This document shows, in pieces, positions 47,733 through 62,212 of a stretch of 64,000 bases of DNA. The notes under the pieces were generated by a model. It ran no database searches, was not told where the DNA came from, and saw only the letters and a program-made list of their open reading frames with translations. Origin of the DNA: Candidatus Chisholmbacteria bacterium. GTDB taxonomy: Bacteria > Patescibacteriota > Microgenomatia > UBA1400 > Chisholmbacteraceae. Within the stretch, counting starts at the first letter, position 1. Each line of letters opens with the position of its first letter. Location: assembly GCA_963704905.1 (NCBI GenBank), contig CAVPHZ010000002.1, positions 292,537 through 356,536 on the forward strand, read 5' to 3'. The translations under genes and the position numbers were made by a program.

Positions 47733-48809
47733 CTATTGAACCAATATGCTGTGCGGACTGGATTCATGAACACCTGCTCGCGAGATACGGATAAATTTGG
47801 CCTTCTCAGCCAACTCCTCAACATTGTGGGCTCCTAAATACGCCAGGCCTGATCGAAGACCGCCAAGCATCTGATGCAAGTGATCTTCAAGTCCCCCACG
47901 ATGCGGTACCAATCCTTCGACTCCTTCAGGAACTAAATTTTTCGTCTGTCCCTTCTTCCAAGTTTGTCCGTACCTGGCAGCACTACCCTCTTTCATCGCC
48001 GCAACCGATCCCATACCTCTGTAGGACTTGTACATTTTCCCTCCGACTTGGATTACATCACCTGGAGCCTCATCCGTCCCAGCCAGTAATGAGCCCAGCA
48101 TGACTGTAGAAGCACCTGCAGCCAATGCTTTAACAATATCACCGCTGGTCTTGATTCCACCATCAGCAATGATGTGGCGCTTAAATTCCCGAGCCGCACG
48201 TACTCCTTCCAAAACTGCAGTAAGTTGAGGTACACCCATCCCACTCATGACCCGGGTCGTACAGATTGATCCCGGTCCCATTCCTACCCGGACAACATCG
48301 GCACCGGCTGTGAATAAAGCCTTTGCCCCTTCATATGTCGCCACATTTCCAGATATGAGCTGGACTTTTGGAAAGCGCTTTTTGATATCACTCGTAGCTT
48401 CAACGACGTGTTTCGTATGACCATGACTGGAGTCTATACAAAGGATGCGTACACCAGCAGAAACAAGTTGTTTAACACGCTCGTCAAAATCATCCCCAAC
48501 TCCTATAGCGGCTCCAACTACTAAATCTTCCTCTATCACTTTTTTCACCTGAGCTGCCTGTTGTTCAATCGAAAGATTTCGGTGGATAATCCCAAGTCCA
48601 CCCAGCTGAGCCAAGGTTTTTGCCATTTGGTATTCCGTGACGGTATCCATTGGAGAAGAGATAATTGGGGTCAGCAGTCGAATCGTTGAACTCAGTTGTG
48701 TGGATAAGTCCGTTTTTGATGGCCGAACCTCAGAATAATTTGGCAATAAAAGGACATCATCATAGGTAAGATATTCATCCATTGATAAAAGATCTGATAA
48801 TTCAGTCAT
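47733..48809 (-). CDS. guaB: IMP dehydrogenase lacking the CBS (Bateman) subdomain
   Basis: [19 protein letters not shown], the catalytic loop [11 protein letters not shown], and the IMPDH-type C-terminus [15 protein letters not shown]. Confidence 0.8.
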
Positions 48810-51968: not shown

Positions 51969-53426
51969 ATGAAAGAAATCCCACTTACCCTTGGCTTCGC
52001 AGACATCCTCTTGAAACCACAATTCTCAGACATTCGCTCACGGTATAGTGATGAGATTAGCCTTGACACTCACTTCGCCCGGGGAATGCCGGAACTTCGT
52101 CTACCTATAGTCTCCGCAAACATGGACACAGTTACCGAAGGTTCGATGGCCGAGGCCATGGCGCTAAGTGGCGGCTTAGGCATCATCCATCGCAACTTTT
52201 CCATCCAACAACAAACCCACGAAGTTCGAATAGTCAAAGAAAGAACCCGCATCATTGAAGAACACCCTCCAACCTTAAATGAGCTAGCTACTATTCAAGA
52301 CGCTCTAGGCCTGTTACAGAGTAGTAACCGTGGGTATGTCATCGTCCACACAGGAGAAAGTTTTAACGGGTCATTTTCTGGAATCGCAACCACCAGAGAT
52401 TTCCTCGCAAAGCCAGTTGACATGCCCATCTCTGCAGTAATGACGCCGAATCAACAAGAAAGGCTGATAACCGTCCCGCAAGGAACTACGCTTGAACAAG
52501 CCGCCCTATTAATGAGACAAATGCGGGTCGAGAAAGTTCCTGTGATAAATGAAGCAGGACTCCTTATAGGCGTCTATTCACTTAAGGACTACGACTTACA
52601 GCAATTACTTCCCAGCGCAGCTATCGATAACCAAGGACGGTTAATGGTCGGAGCGGCTATTGGGGTGAGTAACCAGGAAATGGAGGTCGAACGGGCTCAT
52701 GCACTCATTGATGCTGGTGTGGATGCACTGGTCTTGGATATTGCCCACGGTCATCATCAATACATCCGCGAAATGCTTTACAGATTAAAAGTAATAGAAA
52801 AAATCAGCACACCAATTATTGCCGGGAATGTAGCCACTGCAGAAGGAACGGAATTTCTTGTTGATGAAGGTGCAGATGGAGTCAAAATTGGCATCGGTCC
52901 CGGACTAACCTGCGAAACCCGGGATATCGCTGGCACAGGTGTGGGACAGGTAAGTGCTATCCTCGACGCCGTTGAAGCGATGCAGAAAAAACAAGAGCAA
53001 GTACCAATCATTGCCGATGGTGGAATACGCAAACCGCACGACATCGACGTTGCCTTAGGTGCTGGAGCTGACACAGTCATGATCGGATCACTCTTTGCCG
53101 GAACTGAGGAAAGCCCAGGAGAAACTGTAGTGATCGATGGACATCGGTTTAAGGAAGTCAGAGGAATGGCCTCAAAACGCGCCCAACAGACCCGCAGTGA
53201 ACTCGGTGCAACCACAACAGACTCGAAGCGCTATGTACCAGAAGGGAGGGTCACCCGAGTCCCTCACCGAGGAGATGTCACGGAGATATTAGAAGAATAT
53301 GCTGGTGGACTCCGATCCGCTATGAGCTATTCAGGTTCTCATACAATCAGAGAATTCCACCAAAAAGCTGAGCTAAGACGCGTCACCCCCGCAGCAGCCA
53401 ATGAACAGAAACGTCCATTGGGATAA
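51969..53426 (+). CDS. IMPDH-family paralogue with a CBS pair and a divergent catalytic loop
   Basis: [11 protein letters not shown], two CBS domains, and a Cys loop IGIGPGLTCETRD (canonical [11 protein letters not shown]). The C-terminus lacks the ES-PH motif. Confidence 0.75.
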   Translation: MKEIPLTLGFADILLKPQFSDIRSRYSDEISLDTHFARGMPELRLPIVSANMDTVTEGSMAEAMALSGGLGIIHRNFSIQQQTHEVRIVKERTRIIEEHPPTLNELATIQDALGLLQSSNRGYVIVHTGESFNGSFSGIATTRDFLAKPVDMPISAVMTPNQQERLITVPQGTTLEQAALLMRQMRVEKVPVINEAGLLIGVYSLKDYDLQQLLPSAAIDNQGRLMVGAAIGVSNQEMEVERAHALIDAGVDALVLDIAHGHHQYIREMLYRLKVIEKISTPIIAGNVATAEGTEFLVDEGADGVKIGIGPGLTCETRDIAGTGVGQVSAILDAVEAMQKKQEQVPIIADGGIRKPHDIDVALGAGADTVMIGSLFAGTEESPGETVVIDGHRFKEVRGMASKRAQQTRSELGATTTDSKRYVPEGRVTRVPHRGDVTEILEEYAGGLRSAMSYSGSHTIREFHQKAELRRVTPAAANEQKRPLG

Positions 53427-53464: not shown

Positions 53465-55048
53465 TTATCGATACGGAGCCCGTCGTGCTTCTTCAGGGGA
53501 TGAGATCGAATCATAACATTTATAAGGCAAGAATTGCTTAATCTGGTCACCTTTTTCTACCGTAAGAAAGGCTGCATTGCAGAGAATCTCATGAAGCGCA
53601 CGAAACATCTCTCCGACATACTCTCGATCTTCTTTTGAGTACCCGCGCAGTTTTCCCCGAAGTGCCTGTCGCAACTGCTCATACTCCTGGGCAATTTTTT
53701 GGAAAGGAGGATACAACTGCTCATACACAGGAAAACTCCTTGCCTGGAGTGCATCTTTTGCAATCCGCTCCTTATCCAGATATGAGCCCGCATTGATCAC
53801 TTTTTTTACATCTCCTTTTCTTACCTTAGCCCGGCGCATGGCCTTAAACAAAATATCTTCGTTTCTTTTTTGAAATATTTGTTCAACTCCGTCAAGATTT
53901 CCCTCCATAAGTCCGTTAAAAATGGCAGCCGCTTGTCGGGCTGCAACAATTCCATTCTTAGAAAATCGTTTATTCATCCATTCACTTCCGGCAGACGGCA
54001 ATTGTCGCCCTAGCTCATATATTTTTCGTTCGACATCACTGGAAAATTCATACTTAGGGTCGTCGATTGACAGGATGCGAAGCACTTCAGCGAGTGGTGT
54101 GCGTTCACCTGCCTGATGTTCATAAATCGGACGATCTTTCGCAGGCCCTGCAAGAAACGTCCGCACTGTAGCTAAATCACCGGGAAAAATACTTTCTGCC
54201 TTATCTGCAAAACCGAAAAGGACAGAATATCGTTTAAGAGCCATCAGTGATTCGCTGGTAAATCCTTGAGTAAGCGGACGAGAATTTTCTCGAAAATCAT
54301 CTACGGTAAGAAGGTATTCATCCCGCATATGCTCTGGTAAAAACTGTGCATCCGCTATCGCTGAGGCATATAACTCTGCTGGAGAGACAGTTGTAACACC
54401 CATCCCCAACCCCTCTAATTGCTCCGGGTTCGAATGATGATGAACAATAATTGCTGCACCGCGCAGATACAGCTCAGCCTCCTCTTTGGGTATATTGAAG
54501 GCCTTGGCAAGTTTATCCGTCTGACTCAGTAACCATAGCTCAGCCAGTTCACTATGAGAGTCCTTTTTTCCACTGATGAGCTGAATACTGTCATGGAATC
54601 GGTTCGCCAAATACAGTGAAGGAAGCCAAAAGCGGTTGATCCATTCACCATGGCGGATATTCGGTGTGTTGAGAAGTGCAGCTTCTATCCATTCCTCATT
54701 TCTGCGGATATGAGGATAACCATGATCGCCCTTCTCTGCATCCTCCATATCCTTTTTGAGCTGTTGCCCAATTGAACTGTTTGGATCATGTGTTACTTGA
54801 TGGTAAAACTCATTGACCGCCATGTCTGCCCGCTTCATGTTCTCAGCAAAACGCAGGCCTTCTTCTACATGTTGCGGAAGGCGCTCTATGCCCGCGTGCA
54901 TAATGCCAATAACAGAATCCTTAGCGGTACGGCGATCCCGATTCCAATAATTACCATATGCCAGTAAACCTTGAACAACCACCGTTGGTATTTCGAGTTG
55001 ATTGACTTCCTTATACTGTTCTATCTGTGAATCCGGTTTTTCTACCAT
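53465..55048 (-). CDS. hypothetical 527-aa protein, possibly an HD-domain-like phosphohydrolase
   Basis: The spacing of H(IRHGEW)...HD(RFHDS)...HHH(IIVHHHSNPE)...D loosely fits an HD metal-binding pattern. Confidence is weak. Confidence 0.4.
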   Translation of the reverse strand: MVEKPDSQIEQYKEVNQLEIPTVVVQGLLAYGNYWNRDRRTAKDSVIGIMHAGIERLPQHVEEGLRFAENMKRADMAVNEFYHQVTHDPNSSIGQQLKKDMEDAEKGDHGYPHIRRNEEWIEAALLNTPNIRHGEWINRFWLPSLYLANRFHDSIQLISGKKDSHSELAELWLLSQTDKLAKAFNIPKEEAELYLRGAAIIVHHHSNPEQLEGLGMGVTTVSPAELYASAIADAQFLPEHMRDEYLLTVDDFRENSRPLTQGFTSESLMALKRYSVLFGFADKAESIFPGDLATVRTFLAGPAKDRPIYEHQAGERTPLAEVLRILSIDDPKYEFSSDVERKIYELGRQLPSAGSEWMNKRFSKNGIVAARQAAAIFNGLMEGNLDGVEQIFQKRNEDILFKAMRRAKVRKGDVKKVINAGSYLDKERIAKDALQARSFPVYEQLYPPFQKIAQEYEQLRQALRGKLRGYSKEDREYVGEMFRALHEILCNAAFLTVEKGDQIKQFLPYKCYDSISSPEEARRAPYR

Positions 55049-55077: not shown

Positions 55078-55102
55078 AAAAAAAGTCTTCGCGTGCGAAG
55101 AC
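55078..55102 (-). terminator. rho-independent terminator after the 835-aa gene
   Basis: GTCTTCG-CGTG-CGAAGAC is a perfect 7-bp stem. On the minus strand it is followed by U7 (plus-strand A7 at 55078-55084). Confidence 0.6.
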
Positions 55103-55203
55103 TATAAGACCTATAATATTAATATAGTATACACATTAATTACTTATCTGTCAACAAATGGCAGGGGCATCCTGCAATAAAATATGAGTTGTGATGCTCA
55201 TGA

Positions 55204-57711
55204 TTAATCCTCCTTCTTCTCTTCAGATATCCTCGCTGCAAATTCTCGCAATAATTGGAATAAGAATGCTATAGAATACCGTTCTTTCCTAACCCTGGCT
55301 GAGTCAGTTGCATATAGCTGAAGAAACTTTTCAGGTGGTCGTCCGGTAAACCAAAGAATATCTGCATGCTCGAGATAGATATGAGGAGGGTTAAACAAGT
55401 TATATAAAACCGGCTGGTCTGGGTGGCCTGGCTCCGGCTCGGTAATCCTTCGATACGCATATCCTCCCAGCGCATCATCCTGAATCTTTTCATGATGTCC
55501 CCAGAGGATGTCTTCATATGGAGTTCCCTCAAAACTGTCAAATGGATAAAAGATCAGTTCCTCTGAATACTCTTTTCCCTTCTCGTCATGAAGTACAACA
55601 TAATATTTTTTGCGGATAATGAAATCAGACATGCTTCCGGGACGCTTTCCTTTCATCGACTGTTCCTCAAATTCTTTTCTGAGCTGTTCAGGTGATTTCT
55701 CAAGCTGAGAAAATTTATCTTTTTCTTCGATAAAATCAACTGTCCACCCAGGTTTCTGTTCGCCGAATTCCTGTAAAAATGCTTCTTTCACTCGATCAGC
55801 TATCGTATTCACTCGTGCAATCATTCGTCTCGAATAGTCTTGAAAATCATCATTCGTCATCTGCTCATATCTCCCAGATTCACCAGCGTTATCTTGAACA
55901 AGAACGATGTTCCTTGAAAAGACATCATGTATTTCATCAAGCGGTTCATAGAATGACTTTCGTAAAAAAGAGAAAAACGGTTTGACAATTTTTGCATCGA
56001 CAAAAACATGTTGCCTCTTTCCCTCAACATCAAACAACAGCTCGCGATGGGTAACGGTATACTGAAGCCCGCCCCGGTTCACGCGTTCATCATGTTGGGC
56101 TGAGGAAAAGATATTTCCGCTCAATATTGCCTCATGATGGTTATTTCCGTTATCTAAAAGTTCCCGATATCTTCGATAAGCGGGTATCCCATGGCCAAGA
56201 AATGCCAGCTTCCGCAGTGCCTCATACCTCCGCTGATCCTCAAAACGCTGCGATTCTTTGCCAGTAGAGGTCTGTGGAATAAATGGATATAACCCATTCG
56301 CAGTCAGAAAAATCCGTCCCATACCGGCATTCACAACTTCATTCATCAATTTTGTCGGCTGGAACAGTTCTTTAAAGTCTGGATTGAGGCTGAGGCTCTC
56401 ATCGTACAAATTGTTGAAATATTCATCGATTTCTCTTTGAACTTCCAGGATAAATTCTGGAGAAACATGTCGGCGTCTCGCATATGCCTCAAGCATCAGA
56501 GCGTCAAGCTTTTCGATGTATGTCGATCGTTCGCTCGGACTCATTGCAATGAATTTCTCACGGAGTGCTTCTATGCTCAGCTGATCTTTTAGAATTTTAA
56601 CTTGCTCCTTACGTAATTTATCATCCTCAGGAGGGATCTGCTCTTTCTCAAAGGCAAGGTACGCCTGTCGGAAGGACTGGACAAAATGTCGCATATTTTC
56701 TTGAATATTTTGTGTAGGAGCTTCATACAAAAAAGATGACAAGTCTTCAGATCGAACATCACGTCCTGAAAGGAACCAGACAAACTTTAGGAGATCGAGT
56801 CCTGGTGGAGGTTTCTCGCTCTCAACTTCACGCTTCTGCTCATCATGCAAAATCCATCGAGCTTGAACTCTTCCATAAGCTCGAATAATCTCCTCGGTAG
56901 GACAGTTATCAATATTCTGCACAGGTTCTAAACGCTGGCGGATTCGCTCCTGATTGAGATCTTCAATCACCTCACTGTGGATTAGCATTTCAAAAGAGTA
57001 AACCCGTGCGGAAACTGCATCCATTACTTCATGCTGGTTCACTCGCTGATCAGAAGTAAGAAAAACATCTGGAGCTGTTACTTTCGTAAAGTGACCGGCC
57101 ATAGTTGAACTCGAGATTGAGAAAAAATCCGGCAGTTTCCCGCTGTCCTCCAGAGATCGTTCAACTTTACCCCGATTAATCAATTCAGAAAATTCAGCAG
57201 GAGTGTATGAATTGAACGACTCAATCTTGGAAACATCAGGATTTCGTGGTTTAAGAAGTGTATACTCTGGAGGAATAACCACAAAAGGAACAGTGTGAAC
57301 GGTGCGGGGTTCAGCAGGAACACGTTTCGCTTTCTTCTTCCCGATAATGTAATAGGTAAACGTAGCCTCAATTGATCGGAAGATCTCTTCATTCTCCCAC
57401 CACTCTCCCATGGAAAACAGGAGCGACTCATCCCGAAGCTTTCGCCGTGCACCTTGAAGAGCGGACTCACCTTCCAACATTTTTCCGCCGAGTGGCATTG
57501 ACAGACCATGACTGGTCTCACTCTCCTGGCTTTTTTTCGTCAGAATGATCCGTGTAAACTCCACATCATCCTTATGAGCAGCTGAGTCAAGATCATCCTT
57601 GATTTGATCAAGGGAACGGAACGTAAACGGCAGAACCCGGACAATATTTAGCGGTTCTGAAGCTAAACGTTCTGGATTCCCTCTTGCCGTTTCGGTTTCT
57701 CCTCTTGCCAT
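55204..57711 (-). CDS. hypothetical 835-aa protein with an N-terminal Nudix-fold domain and a degenerate Nudix box
   Basis: MPLGGKMLEGESALQGARRKLRDESLLF aligns to the Nudix box GX5EX7REUXEEXGU (compare GETPEEAAIRELKEETGL), but RE becomes RK and EE becomes DE. I see no recognisable motif in the remaining ~650 aa. Confidence 0.5.
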   Translation of the reverse strand: MARGETETARGNPERLASEPLNIVRVLPFTFRSLDQIKDDLDSAAHKDDVEFTRIILTKKSQESETSHGLSMPLGGKMLEGESALQGARRKLRDESLLFSMGEWWENEEIFRSIEATFTYYIIGKKKAKRVPAEPRTVHTVPFVVIPPEYTLLKPRNPDVSKIESFNSYTPAEFSELINRGKVERSLEDSGKLPDFFSISSSTMAGHFTKVTAPDVFLTSDQRVNQHEVMDAVSARVYSFEMLIHSEVIEDLNQERIRQRLEPVQNIDNCPTEEIIRAYGRVQARWILHDEQKREVESEKPPPGLDLLKFVWFLSGRDVRSEDLSSFLYEAPTQNIQENMRHFVQSFRQAYLAFEKEQIPPEDDKLRKEQVKILKDQLSIEALREKFIAMSPSERSTYIEKLDALMLEAYARRRHVSPEFILEVQREIDEYFNNLYDESLSLNPDFKELFQPTKLMNEVVNAGMGRIFLTANGLYPFIPQTSTGKESQRFEDQRRYEALRKLAFLGHGIPAYRRYRELLDNGNNHHEAILSGNIFSSAQHDERVNRGGLQYTVTHRELLFDVEGKRQHVFVDAKIVKPFFSFLRKSFYEPLDEIHDVFSRNIVLVQDNAGESGRYEQMTNDDFQDYSRRMIARVNTIADRVKEAFLQEFGEQKPGWTVDFIEEKDKFSQLEKSPEQLRKEFEEQSMKGKRPGSMSDFIIRKKYYVVLHDEKGKEYSEELIFYPFDSFEGTPYEDILWGHHEKIQDDALGGYAYRRITEPEPGHPDQPVLYNLFNPPHIYLEHADILWFTGRPPEKFLQLYATDSARVRKERYSIAFLFQLLREFAARISEEKKED

Positions 57712-57736
57712 ATGTTTTTTTTAAATAAAAAAGAAA

Positions 57737-57753
57737 ACGGCGTAGTATGCCGT
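57737..57753 (-). terminator. weak hairpin plus U-rich tract immediately upstream of the 835-aa ORF start; an attenuator or partial terminator candidate
   Basis: ACGGC-GTAGTAT-GCCGT. On the minus strand it is followed by UUUCUUUUUUAUUUAAAAAAA, only about 25 nt before the ATG at 57711. Confidence 0.3.
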
Positions 57754-57845
57754 CTTCACAAGTATTATAGGTCGAAAGTATAATGCTTTCTAATCTTGAA
57801 GTCAAATGCTAAGTCCTTCTCACACTCCCCAAAATAGTATTAGTC

Positions 57846-58481
57846 TCATTTAAAAATCTTTCGTTTCGTGATAACCTCCCAAATTTCCTCTTCAATATCT
57901 TCAACGTATTGCCGTGCATCAATTATCACCCAGCGCTTCCGATCGTCATTCTTTACCAAATTGAGGTACGCTGCCCGCACCTTCTCATGAAACTCCTTTG
58001 TCTCCATATCCAAACGATCCATTTTCTCACTTTTGTTTCTTCGCGAGAGACCCGCTTCAACAGGAATATCAAGAAGAATGGTCAAATCTGGGTAGGTAGA
58101 CTCTGTAGAGAAGTCGTTCAACTGCTCGATAAGCTTTCTCCCAAATCCCCGGACAATACCTTGGTAAACCACAGAACTGTCCCTGGTTCGATCCGCTAAT
58201 ACATACTTCCCCAATTTTAGGGACGGATTGATAATTTCCCGGTAAATCTGCGATCGAGCTGCCTGGAAAAGAAGAACTTCGGTTGTATATGCCATCCCGG
58301 TATTCTTTGGTGAAAGTACAATTTGGCGGATTTTCTCGGATATCACTGACCCTCCAGGTTCACGAACCACAACCACATTCTTTCCCCGAGCAGACAACCG
58401 GTCGCGTAGGCGCTTGACCTGAACGGACTTTCCAGCTCCCTCTCCCCCTTCAAAACTGATGAGTTTTCCACGCCTAGGCAT
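57846..58481 (-). CDS. tmk: thymidylate kinase
   Basis: ISFEGGEGAGKS P-loop, the DRY-like region LADR, and the lid. Confidence 0.85.
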   Translation of the reverse strand: MPRRGKLISFEGGEGAGKSVQVKRLRDRLSARGKNVVVVREPGGSVISEKIRQIVLSPKNTGMAYTTEVLLFQAARSQIYREIINPSLKLGKYVLADRTRDSSVVYQGIVRGFGRKLIEQLNDFSTESTYPDLTILLDIPVEAGLSRRNKSEKMDRLDMETKEFHEKVRAAYLNLVKNDDRKRWVIIDARQYVEDIEEEIWEVITKRKIFK

Positions 58482-58585: not shown

Positions 58586-59455
58586 TTAATCAACATGATG
58601 GTCAAATGTTTCAGCTTGCTTGGGAGAAAACAAAGCGAAGTGCTCCGCACATGACGAACGGTAATAATCGCCTGCCAGCACACCTTTTCCGGCACCGACG
58701 AGGACCACAGGGTCATCGCTACTCGCCGGTCTCTCCCGGCCATCCTCCAAAATAACTGTCCTGCTTGTCATCCACGCAGGATATGAACAATCCATGCATT
58801 GAGCTGCCAAAACAATGCCGCTATCCGCTTCGGAGAGAATCGTTCCGGTATTTTCCCAAGGAGTTCCAAGAAATGACAGATCAAGACCTAAGAGAAGTGC
58901 TTTCATCTGACGCTTTTTAAGCCATACGGACCATTCCCTCAGCTCACCTCGATTCAAATTGCTAAACTGGATCTCATCAGCGATAACCACGCCATTTGCT
59001 GTCGCTGCTACAGCCGTTGATAGCTCTGAAAAAGAATCATAGATCTTAGTCTGAACGTCAGTACGATACCAGCCGCCGCCTTTTTCTTTAATTGCAAGTT
59101 CTTCGATATTTGTGCGGACAAAACCTAATTGATGTTGAAATACCTGCGCCCGTTGGCCTAATATGCCTGCAACTATAGCTGCGGTCGCGCTCTTCCCTCC
59201 CCACATAGGCGCAAAAACAAAAAACACAGTCCCCTCTCTATCAAACATATCACGGGAAAGAAACTCAGCTGCTTGGACTTGGTTTACATTGTAGTTCGTA
59301 ATATCCGGGTGAGGAACAGCATTCGGAAAAAAATGGACCTTACGTTGAGCATACAAACGTTCGTAAGTACTCTCGAGAGGCTCCACATGTGGCAATTCCC
59401 AGTTTTCTACACGGAGAAAGTTCTGCCGCACAAGTTCTTTGTATTGAATTGACAT
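58586..59455 (-). CDS. second thymidine-kinase-like (TK1-type) paralogue with a ~90-aa N-terminal extension
   Basis: FAPMWGGKS P-loop, VVIADEIQF, and the zinc ribbon CMDCSYPAWMTSR...GDYYRSSCAEHF. Confidence 0.65.
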   Translation of the reverse strand: MSIQYKELVRQNFLRVENWELPHVEPLESTYERLYAQRKVHFFPNAVPHPDITNYNVNQVQAAEFLSRDMFDREGTVFFVFAPMWGGKSATAAIVAGILGQRAQVFQHQLGFVRTNIEELAIKEKGGGWYRTDVQTKIYDSFSELSTAVAATANGVVIADEIQFSNLNRGELREWSVWLKKRQMKALLLGLDLSFLGTPWENTGTILSEADSGIVLAAQCMDCSYPAWMTSRTVILEDGRERPASSDDPVVLVGAGKGVLAGDYYRSSCAEHFALFSPKQAETFDHHVD

Positions 59456-60634: not shown

Positions 60635-62212
60635 TTAAGCAGGATCTTGGGAGTATCCACCTCCGCGAACAATGGCTTCTTCAGCCTTTTGAAGTTCAAT
60701 CCCAATATACATGATGTGTCCAGGGTCCCGCAGATAACCCCAGTCGGTGATCTGCCAGGCGACTTCTTGAGATGTACGGCCCTCAAATATTTTAATCGGT
60801 GCACCACCATCCGGTGCAAACATGGTTGCTCGAATAAGCTTTCCCGCATTCCGTCCCCGCTTCGGTATCCGTTTCAGTGTTTGTGAAACTGCATATGGAA
60901 CCGCCTCATTTTCGTATCGCGAAGAAAAATCAGCCCACACCATTGCATCTTTACGACTGATAACTTCAACCACCACATTCCCTCTCGGATCAAAGTTAAA
61001 ATGAACCGCTGGGGTATACCCAAGCTCCTTCTCATAATGTTTCATGATCAGCTCTTCAACTAAGAGAAAATCATCACTATAGATATGCGCACTGTGGGTG
61101 ATGATGCTCAGTGGACCAAGTGGATAGCCAGTTTCATGAGAAATTTCGTACTGAAGTTTGCGCAGCGCAAAGGCATTCCTTGGCCATCCATGCACCATAT
61201 CCTGGCTGCGAAAATGAGCTGTTAAGTGAAATTTATTTCCATAAATACTGCCGTTGAGTTGGGTCAAGCACGGTGTGTCACCTTTATGCACAGCTCCCCA
61301 ATCCCGTTTGACATCGACAGTGAAGGCTGCCATTTTCTTCGATGCTGGCCGTTTTTTTATCAGTTCCTTAATCTTTTCAATCTGATCAACGCCGAGCTCC
61401 TTACGCAACCTCCGTCCATAGTTGTACGCAACTCCAGGAATCTTTCGGTCAGTCAAAAGTTCAGCATAATACGCTTCCAACTCTATACGACTAAACGGTA
61501 AATACTGAGGAAAATAAATCTCATCCGGATCTTCATCAGTGACCACCGAAGTAAGATTAAGCACCTCTCGAATCTCGTTATCCTTACTGTAACGCGTATG
61601 CTTTGGCATACCATACTTATAAACTTCATTGAGAATCTTCAGCCAAGTCTTAGCTACTGAGGTTGCTGAAACCCGAAACCCAACTGTTTCACTCGGCAGC
61701 ACAGAAAACTTCGGTTGCGCTTTGGGAAACGTTTTCGGTTTTCGAGCAAACGGAACAGATTTTTCCGATGAAAGAACTTTAACAGTTTCTATCAGCACAT
61801 CCTTATTCCTTCCCCTAAGATCAACAACCTGAACCTTCTTACGAAATAGCTCAATCGCCACATCAGTAATTTCTTCTTCGATCTCCCCTCGTCCTTTCTT
61901 TATAGACCGATCCTTGTTTACTCCTTCCTGTATAAACATCAGTAGTGAGTGCCCTGAAAGGCTCATCTCCGAACCCCACAACACGATCGTCCTCAGTGCA
62001 GGATTGGCAAAAATGTTTCGCATCATTGCGTTAATTCCTTGTGCGCTGTAGAGGTTTCCAATCAGGTTGTACTTTGTTCCGGATAAAATTTTCTTCACTA
62101 CTTGGCGTTCAGTCCATAAGCAACACACCCCAACATGATGATCAGGATCATTGACCAGCAGAATATCTTTGTAGTAAAGCGGCCAGCCTCGCGTCCGTAC
62201 ACTCATAGGCAT
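60635..62212 (-). CDS. thymidylate-synthase-family (ThyA-like) catalytic domain embedded in a 525-aa protein with ~185-aa N-terminal and ~120-aa C-terminal extensions
   Basis: Residues ~190-400 align with ThyA: HTRYSKDNEIREVLNL to DRTGTGT; YGRRLR to YGKQWR; KRPASKKMAAFTV to NDPDSRRIIVSAW; nucleophile PCL; FRSQDM..GWPRNAFA to YQRSCD..GLPFNIAS, where Asn implies dUMP specificity; HSAHIY to GDTHLY. Confidence 0.6.
   Translation of the reverse strand: MPMSVRTRGWPLYYKDILLVNDPDHHVGVCCLWTERQVVKKILSGTKYNLIGNLYSAQGINAMMRNIFANPALRTIVLWGSEMSLSGHSLLMFIQEGVNKDRSIKKGRGEIEEEITDVAIELFRKKVQVVDLRGRNKDVLIETVKVLSSEKSVPFARKPKTFPKAQPKFSVLPSETVGFRVSATSVAKTWLKILNEVYKYGMPKHTRYSKDNEIREVLNLTSVVTDEDPDEIYFPQYLPFSRIELEAYYAELLTDRKIPGVAYNYGRRLRKELGVDQIEKIKELIKKRPASKKMAAFTVDVKRDWGAVHKGDTPCLTQLNGSIYGNKFHLTAHFRSQDMVHGWPRNAFALRKLQYEISHETGYPLGPLSIITHSAHIYSDDFLLVEELIMKHYEKELGYTPAVHFNFDPRGNVVVEVISRKDAMVWADFSSRYENEAVPYAVSQTLKRIPKRGRNAGKLIRATMFAPDGGAPIKIFEGRTSQEVAWQITDWGYLRDPGHIMYIGIELQKAEEAIVRGGGYSQDPA

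Follow-up and report, generated by a model that had tools for sequence, protein, structure and literature searches.

What might a large protein do when its one readily recognised part is a Nudix fold that has lost glutamates of its active site? This question is raised by an open reading frame (ORF) of Candidatus Chisholmbacteria, located at 55204..57711 on the (-) strand of a stretch of 64,000 nucleotides, hereafter the window (GenBank assembly GCA_963704905.1, contig CAVPHZ010000002.1, positions 292,537 to 356,536). From an ATG start, the ORF encodes 835 amino acids (aa) followed by a stop codon, and a preliminary description based on its letters alone had singled out the degenerate Nudix domain as the main feature and linked the gene to deoxynucleotides. 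Here, we show that the product has a three-domain architecture (a Nudix fold, a helical middle and a C-terminal alpha/beta domain), and that it is a cytoplasmic member of an undescribed family, the invariant residues of which lie in the C-terminal domain rather than in the Nudix box. Our preferred answer, given tentatively, is that the C-terminal domain is a transferase with a core resembling that of the RelA/SpoT homologues (RSH), and that the Nudix domain binds or hydrolyses the same or a related nucleotide, having become a pseudo-enzyme in the window protein.

Domain architecture and extent of the family

In the structure model of the window protein (predicted local distance difference test, pLDDT, 87.2; predicted template modelling score, pTM, 0.86), the N-terminal domain (residues 18-204; 57100..57660, on the (-) strand like all parts of the ORF) was identified by a fold search as a Nudix alpha/beta/alpha sandwich, with Nudix proteins filling the 50-60 matches listed and spread evenly over all specificities. 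It is followed by an all-helical middle domain (residues 205-534; 56110..57099), featuring the conserved residues Q451, N457, N461, E497 and R500, then by the C-terminal alpha/beta domain (residues 535-795; 55327..56109), in which the predicted elements are, in order, strand, helix, strand, helix, strand, insert, strand, strand and helix. The C-terminal tail (residues 796-835; 55207..55326) is modelled with low confidence, and most homologues align only up to about residue 780-790. An AlphaFold2 (AF2) model computed from the single sequence alone was of no use (pLDDT 34).

Relatives of the window protein were recovered by an exhaustive HMMER scan of 1.84 billion representatives, which returned 82 proteins at E up to 0.001 (query included), 55 of them at E up to 1e-10, while a word-indexed search of 5.8 billion clusters yielded the query only, whether started from the single protein or from an alignment of 42 sequences. 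The family is thus invisible to word-indexed protein search and visible only to the exhaustive one. Most of these relatives are 750-860 aa long and align end to end, so that the ORF has full-length homologues at 24-46% identity: three relatives are 40-46% identical to the window protein and the remainder 28% or less. All conservation counts given below refer to the alignment of 42 family members. Relatives occur in four species-representative genomes (titled Patescibacteria group, Candidatus Saccharimonadales, Limnocylindrales metagenome-assembled genome (MAG) and Gammaproteobacteria MAG) and on six further metagenome contigs, while viral contigs (IMG/VR) contain none. The family is conserved in Patescibacteria of Saccharimonadia type. 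Regarding the two other taxonomic titles, the homologue of the Gammaproteobacteria MAG (locus L001, CAZLSZ010000022.1) is 66% identical to that of a Patescibacteria locus (L002), and the locus of the Limnocylindrales MAG (L003, DATLDE010000005.1) has its gene order and its 52-67% identical neighbours in common with Patescibacteria and metagenome loci, which suggests that both contigs are mis-binned or mislabelled.

No description of this family was found in the literature on Nudix proteins in Saccharibacteria, ppGpp in Patescibacteria or small alarmone synthetases (SAS) with Nudix domains. What is new is the whole family, i.e., some 600 conserved residues without a match in four profile libraries (Pfam, NCBIfam, PHROGs and PADLOC) or among Protein Data Bank (PDB) sequences, joined to a repeatedly decaying Nudix domain. 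What is already known is that the N-terminal domain has an ordinary Nudix fold and that pseudo-Nudix domains have a precedent in NrtR.

Nudix box and C-terminal domain

The Nudix box of the window protein, GKMLEGESALQGARRKLRDESLL (residues 76-98; 57418..57486), reads R90-K91-L92-R93-D94-E95 at its core. When it is laid on the signature G-x5-E-x7-R-E-U-x-E-E-x-G-U (G76, E82, R90, K91, L92, R93, D94, E95, S96, L97), lysine stands in for the first glutamate of RE-xx-EE (E91K) and aspartate for the second (E94D), while the third is kept, and the trailing glycine is a leucine. The window protein thus lacks the full box with its glutamates, which is the signature of a catalytically active hydrolase. 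Mutagenesis of MutT indicates that the first and third glutamates matter most for catalysis; because of this, E91K should be severely disabling. At the profile level, the window protein matches Pfam NUDIX (PF00293) over residues 54-98 only, at 16.7 bits (E 0.0073), under the gathering threshold of 21.1, whereas NCBIfam and PHROGs gave nothing useful for it and a single-protein search of PDB sequences gave no match.

Across the family, the consensus box is canonical (P-x-GG-x5-E-x4-AA-x-RE-xx-EE-T). Pfam NUDIX is matched individually by half of the members (21/42) at E up to 0.01 (best E 1.6e-08), and the family profile matches MutT, CoA pyrophosphatase and MTH1 in the PDB at E 2e-4 to 1e-3, over profile positions ~56-113 only. 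RE-xx-EE is intact in 17 members and degenerate in the other 25. Intact and degenerate boxes are mixed across a neighbour-joining tree of residues 205-795, on which Fitch parsimony counts a minimum of 9 changes of box state; the clade made up of the window protein and its three closest relatives has degenerate boxes (R-K or R-I) in all four proteins. As judged from this distribution, the Nudix active site is optional in the family and has decayed repeatedly, being lost at least about 9 times, a natural experiment during which the partner domain stays invariant.

That partner is the C-terminal domain, where K577, D596, R690, S693, R700 and E718 are found in 42/42 members, and S581, K585, N601, K702, K742 and D745 in most of them. 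These residues are clustered in three motifs: KPFFSFLRKSFYEPLDEIHDVFSRN (55909..55983; K577, S581, R584, K585, D596, N601), which aligns to the RSH segment R-x-K-x3-S-x2-(R)K ... D-x4-R; GKRPGS...IIRKKYYVV...EELIFYP (55543..55650; G688, R690, S693, R700, K702, E718, P723); and WGHHEKIQDDALGGYAYRR (55447..55503; W737, E741, K742, D745, D746, Y751, R755). Mean pairwise identity amounts to 24.6% in the Nudix domain, 20.3% in the middle domain and 28.5% in the C-terminal domain, where two motif cores reach 36-37%. Within the alignment, a charged set is shown to be invariant or nearly so in every member, with basic (K577, K585, R690, R700, K702, K742, R755) and acidic residues (D596, E718, D745). 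Such a combination of Lys/Arg with Asp/Glu would be expected of a site binding polyphosphate with a metal ion. As the C-terminal residues are invariant and the Nudix box is optional, the indispensable chemistry of the family therefore appears to sit in the C-terminal domain.

The same domain is absent from the databases that we searched: the C-terminal domains of 12 members had no match in Pfam at E up to 10, NCBIfam and PHROGs had none either, and the C-terminal profile retrieved 0 PDB sequences. A protein-kinase-like reading of D596-x4-N601 was dropped by reasoning, since the motif lies directly after the first helix and not in a C-lobe catalytic loop. Altogether, the fold, the degenerate box (the quoted peptide corresponding to residues 75-98), the helical middle and the lack of an assignable motif or family in the remainder stand as the preliminary description had them, and our searches placed the protein in no well-known family. 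The idea that the degenerate box is the defining feature is not supported, however, given the canonical consensus, the members that keep RE-xx-EE and the C-terminal location of the invariant residues.

Possible resemblance to RelA/SpoT synthetases

Before any profile comparison, a register with RSH synthetases was set by eye as a hypothesis, the spacing K577-x3-S581-x2-R584-K585-(10)-D596-x4-N601-x-V being like that of RPK-HIY-S-IW-RK-(12)-D-VRAV-R-IV in E. coli RelA. The family C-terminal profile was then compared by hhalign with an alignment of 20 RSH synthetase sequences, i.e., E. coli RelA and SpoT, eight RelA-type sequences (52-62% identity to E. coli RelA), five more long-RSH segments and five SAS. 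The five long-RSH segments came from records of a 'phages' collection, four being of Rel type (Listeria, Staphylococcus and human-gut contigs) and the last one (L017) being identical to E. coli SpoT. The top alignment was the predicted register, with K577/S581/R584-K585/D596/N601 falling onto RPK-HIY-S-IW-RK...D-VRAV-R of RelA (score 25.5, P 0.0055, probability 6.6%), while the reversed alignment scored 14.6 and 100 column shuffles scored 12.8 on average (standard deviation 2.1, maximum 20.2). Moreover, the K/S/K helix was placed in this register again by a profile built from long RSH only (P 0.0029) and by one from SAS only (P 0.063), and control profiles of CCA-adding enzyme, RecJ and aminoacyl-tRNA synthetase (aaRS) gave P values of 0.15-0.4. 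The tentative signal falls on the ATP-phosphate-binding R-x-K-x3-S-x3-K helix and the following strand with the Mg-binding D-x2-G-x-R; its score is above all 100 shuffles, but the hhalign probability is only 7-11%. A diverse RSH alignment was needed to bring it out, as hhalign of the C-terminal profile with E. coli RelA alone gave no match. Finally, the predicted order of elements would fit the synthetase topology of the RelQ and Rel structures, if residues 666-698 are an insertion.

Several results weigh against an RSH-like reading. The acceptor G-Y-x-S-x-H and catalytic E-I-Q-I-R-T strands were not recovered, the corresponding comparisons giving P 0.022 in an unpredicted register, then P 0.09, values that shuffles also reach or approach. 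There is no match at the level of hidden Markov models (HMM) to PF04607, and the best hit of a local RSH HMM among 84 sequences (E 0.0099, 8.3 bits) is not meaningful. The helical middle was also considered as a pseudo-HD domain, and this idea was rejected, as a comparison with the RSH HD domain revealed no similarity (P 0.64). In our view, the sequence comparisons provide partial, moderate support for an RSH-like or nucleotidyltransferase-type beta-alpha-beta core in the C-terminal domain, without establishing that it belongs to the RSH family.

The main rival, which we rate only a little lower than the RSH-like composite and likewise below even odds, is that the domain is an enzyme of a new or unrecognised fold acting on a phosphorylated substrate (a kinase, phosphatase or ligase outside RSH and the other nucleotidyltransferases, for example), its RSH-like motif being due to convergence or chance. 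A signal of only ~40 residues with a low hhalign probability, the failure of the motifs of the second half and the lack of any match in Pfam, NCBIfam, PHROGs, PADLOC and PDB sequences all speak for such a new fold, and the invariant charged residues would still argue for catalysis. On the other hand, the register was predicted in advance, two independent RSH sub-profiles found it again, and it scored above all shuffles.

The RSH-like composite remains the reading that we favour, albeit with confidence well short of conviction. According to it, the C-terminal domain would be the catalytic module that the family cannot dispense with, binding a polyphosphate-bearing nucleotide with Mg2+ and carrying out phosphoryl, pyrophosphoryl or nucleotidyl transfer. 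Its core would be most like the beta-alpha-beta unit of RelA/SpoT-type pyrophosphokinases, which have a nucleotidyltransferase fold; Lys and Ser, where the helix begins, would hold the phosphates, and the metal would be bound by Asp of the following strand together with Glu of a strand further on. The Nudix domain would bind the same or a related nucleotide and, where its box is intact, hydrolyse it; members with an intact box could thus represent a synthetase/hydrolase pair analogous to Rel/SpoT, in which Nudix replaces the HD domain. In the window protein, with E91K and E94D, the Nudix domain may instead serve as a binding or regulatory pseudo-enzyme, like the dead hydrolase domain of RelA. 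A bolder version, which we regard as unlikely, is that of a bifunctional nucleotide-messenger enzyme of ultra-small bacteria, where a highly divergent pyrophosphokinase akin to RelA/SpoT would synthesise an alarmone-type nucleotide for the fused Nudix to degrade, the latter decaying repeatedly into a sensor as in the transition from Rel to RelA.

Genomic setting and known systems

In the window, the gene has tmk on one side and purine-salvage genes on the other, within a nucleotide-metabolism cluster of more than 15 kb, which agrees with the deoxynucleotide island of the preliminary description. Upstream on the same strand are found tmk (57846-58481), a TK-like gene, a deoxynucleoside kinase, a ThyA-like fusion, a dCMP deaminase and a dCTP deaminase; downstream, a 527-aa ORF (53465-55048, (-)) is followed by IMPDH, PNP, a phosphoribosyltransferase, adenosine deaminase, a GMP-reductase-like gene, GuaA and SHMT. 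The TK-like protein (289 aa; 58586-59455, (-)) matches Pfam TK weakly (E 7.6e-12) over residues 76-273, with an N-terminal extension of ~75 residues outside the TK model. The ThyA-like fusion (525 aa; 60635-62212, (-)) is unusual in its pterin-binding modules, combining an MtrA-like N-terminus (PF04208, residues 8-136), a partial thymidylate synthase (PF00303, 265-394) and PterinBD-DUF4346 (408-523). Library scans of the 527-aa ORF with Pfam, NCBIfam, PHROGs and PADLOC were without match, no homology search having been made, and its 90% cluster contains itself alone; it is not a paralogue of the window protein (BLASTP E 2.7). Two paralogues of the IMPDH/GMP-reductase family stand within 6 kb, one of 358 aa, devoid of CBS domains and GMP-reductase-like (47733-48809, (-)), the other of 485 aa with CBS domains (51969-53426, (+)).

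The flanking hairpins reported earlier are also present. Between the tmk stop and the ORF start, a GC hairpin with a T-run (57733..57757, (-); -13.2 kcal/mol), probably the tmk terminator, ends 22 nt before the ATG, and upstream of it lies a sigma-70-like promoter match (TTGACT-17-TATACT; 57777..57805, (-)), which is a consensus match only. A second GC hairpin, with T7 (55084..55103, (-); -10.0 kcal/mol), located 100 nt past the stop codon, is probably the terminator of the 835-aa gene, the layout of which is shown to be monocistronic-looking. Neither a riboswitch nor any further known RNA was found with Rfam (E up to 1) on the 5' or the 3' side of the gene. An arrangement of a near-consensus sigma-70-like match, 12-25 nt, a GC hairpin with T-run and the next gene occurs three times within the nucleotide cluster, on the (-) strand (57805..57733, 55154..55084 and 50834..~50775), the matches consisting of TTGACA or TTGACT, 17 nt, and TATACT or TATATT, with the terminator-like element sitting between promoter match and start codon; possible readings are 5' leaders or attenuators, or else terminators of upstream genes accompanied by chance promoter matches. 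None of six consecutive genes (starts at 57711, 55048, 58481, 59455, 60167 and 62212, (-)) has a GGAGG-like Shine-Dalgarno sequence in the 25 nt before its ATG, this region being A/T-rich instead.

Such a setting invites a role dedicated to deoxynucleotide metabolism, the pseudo-Nudix sensing or channelling deoxynucleoside triphosphates for tmk, TK or ThyA, for example. The closest locus (L005, 39% identity) keeps the adjacency, with a tmk 65% identical to that of the window immediately upstream. Yet, the orthologue of this locus has its own promoter-like site (11/12 matches) and a strong terminator, without a 5' hairpin, and so both genes, each with its own promoter-like site and terminator, do not indicate co-transcription with tmk. 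Furthermore, the conserved chemistry appears to reside in the C-terminal domain, not in the Nudix, and the more distant relatives all lack a tmk, TK or ThyA neighbour, which makes a dedicated role of this kind improbable. Five more distant loci, where the relatives are 24-27% identical to the window protein, show instead the order recJ, family gene, class II aaRS, D-Ala-D-Ala carboxypeptidase, an unknown gene and GluRS, with a CCA-adding enzyme beyond recJ. The deoxynucleotide association is therefore local to the clade of the window, and the family-wide link implied by the preliminary description is not supported, tmk adjacency being seen only at L005, the one near-clade locus recovered.

The recJ-aaRS loci bring to mind an action on RNA ends, with a Nudix acting like RppH or Dcp2 on 5' ends and a C-terminal transferase modifying the 3' ends of RNA or tRNA, in the manner of toxSAS enzymes, which pyrophosphorylate the tRNA CCA end. 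We consider this scenario to have slightly poorer prospects still. The neighbours at these loci are 45-66% identical, and in L002 and L007 the family gene merely has the opposite orientation at the same place; their order therefore looks like inherited housekeeping synteny and not like a functional operon. Besides, the even spread of the Nudix fold matches over specificities does not favour RNA, and no RNA-binding domain was detected in the family-library scans.

Least probable of all, by a long way, is a fusion of the Nudix with a nucleotidyltransferase of anti-phage or toxin type, akin to AbiEii or toxSAS. This reading draws on a weak PADLOC match to the AbiEii/DUF1814 nucleotidyltransferase (E 0.0016, residues 559-677), on weak matches of 8/42 members to the PADLOC 'phage defence candidate' model PDC-S07 (best E 9e-4), which may reflect just the Nudix domain, and on the serine recombinase adjoining the L001 gene. 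The AbiEii match is nevertheless restricted to one member, the window protein, and to the non-catalytic half of the profile (positions 153-270 of 290), and was rejected as a chance match. In addition, viral contigs are devoid of relatives, no antitoxin-like partner was seen, and the gene keeps its chromosomal place amid housekeeping genes even in divergent genomes.

Patescibacteria (the candidate phyla radiation, CPR) have tiny genomes, obtain nucleotides from their hosts and carry many conserved genes of unknown function. Here, a large protein of ~800 residues is conserved across deep divergence, down to ~20% identity. Were the RelA/SpoT-like reading true, it would be a pointer to how these bacteria sense and signal nucleotide status, and the bifunctional enzyme would give them their own version of stringent-type signalling; were it false, the C-terminal domain would be a candidate for a new enzyme fold.

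With respect to known systems, the window protein departs from the Nudix superfamily (MutT/MTH1, NUDT17, ADP-ribose pyrophosphatases, RppH; PF00293) by its R-K-L-R-D-E box, in which the next Gly is Leu, by its Pfam score below the gathering cut-off, and by a Nudix domain that makes up less than a quarter of its length and has catalytic residues dispensable across the family. In NrtR-type regulators, a non-catalytic Nudix serves as ligand sensor; the effector of our family would be a helical and alpha/beta module of ~600 residues with enzyme-like invariant residues, and not a winged helix, no helix-turn-helix (HTH) or winged HTH family of Pfam matching the window protein and only 1/42 members showing a weak Sigma70_r4 match. 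Thermus Ndx8 (PMC3153485) and Bacillus NahA (PMC7584652), two Nudix enzymes degrading (p)ppGpp, demonstrate that a Nudix can be the hydrolase arm of alarmone metabolism, but both are single-domain proteins, compared here with the family at the level of the general Nudix fold. Unlike RSH proteins, the family has a Nudix instead of an HD hydrolase, carries a helical insert of ~35 residues with G-K-R-x-G-S, and features neither TGS nor ACT domains, nor recognisable G-Y-x-S-x-H and E-I-Q-I-R-T motifs, nor any HMM-level similarity. Conversely, its beta-alpha-beta segment with K-x3-S-x2-RK, then D-x4-[R/N]-hydrophobic, is a candidate counterpart of the ATP- and Mg-binding segment of Rel, RelA, SpoT, RelP and RelQ, with which it aligns in register, and, like long RSH, the family would have a hydrolase-type domain, helices and a synthetase-type domain in that order, with a hydrolase half repeatedly inactivated as in RelA.

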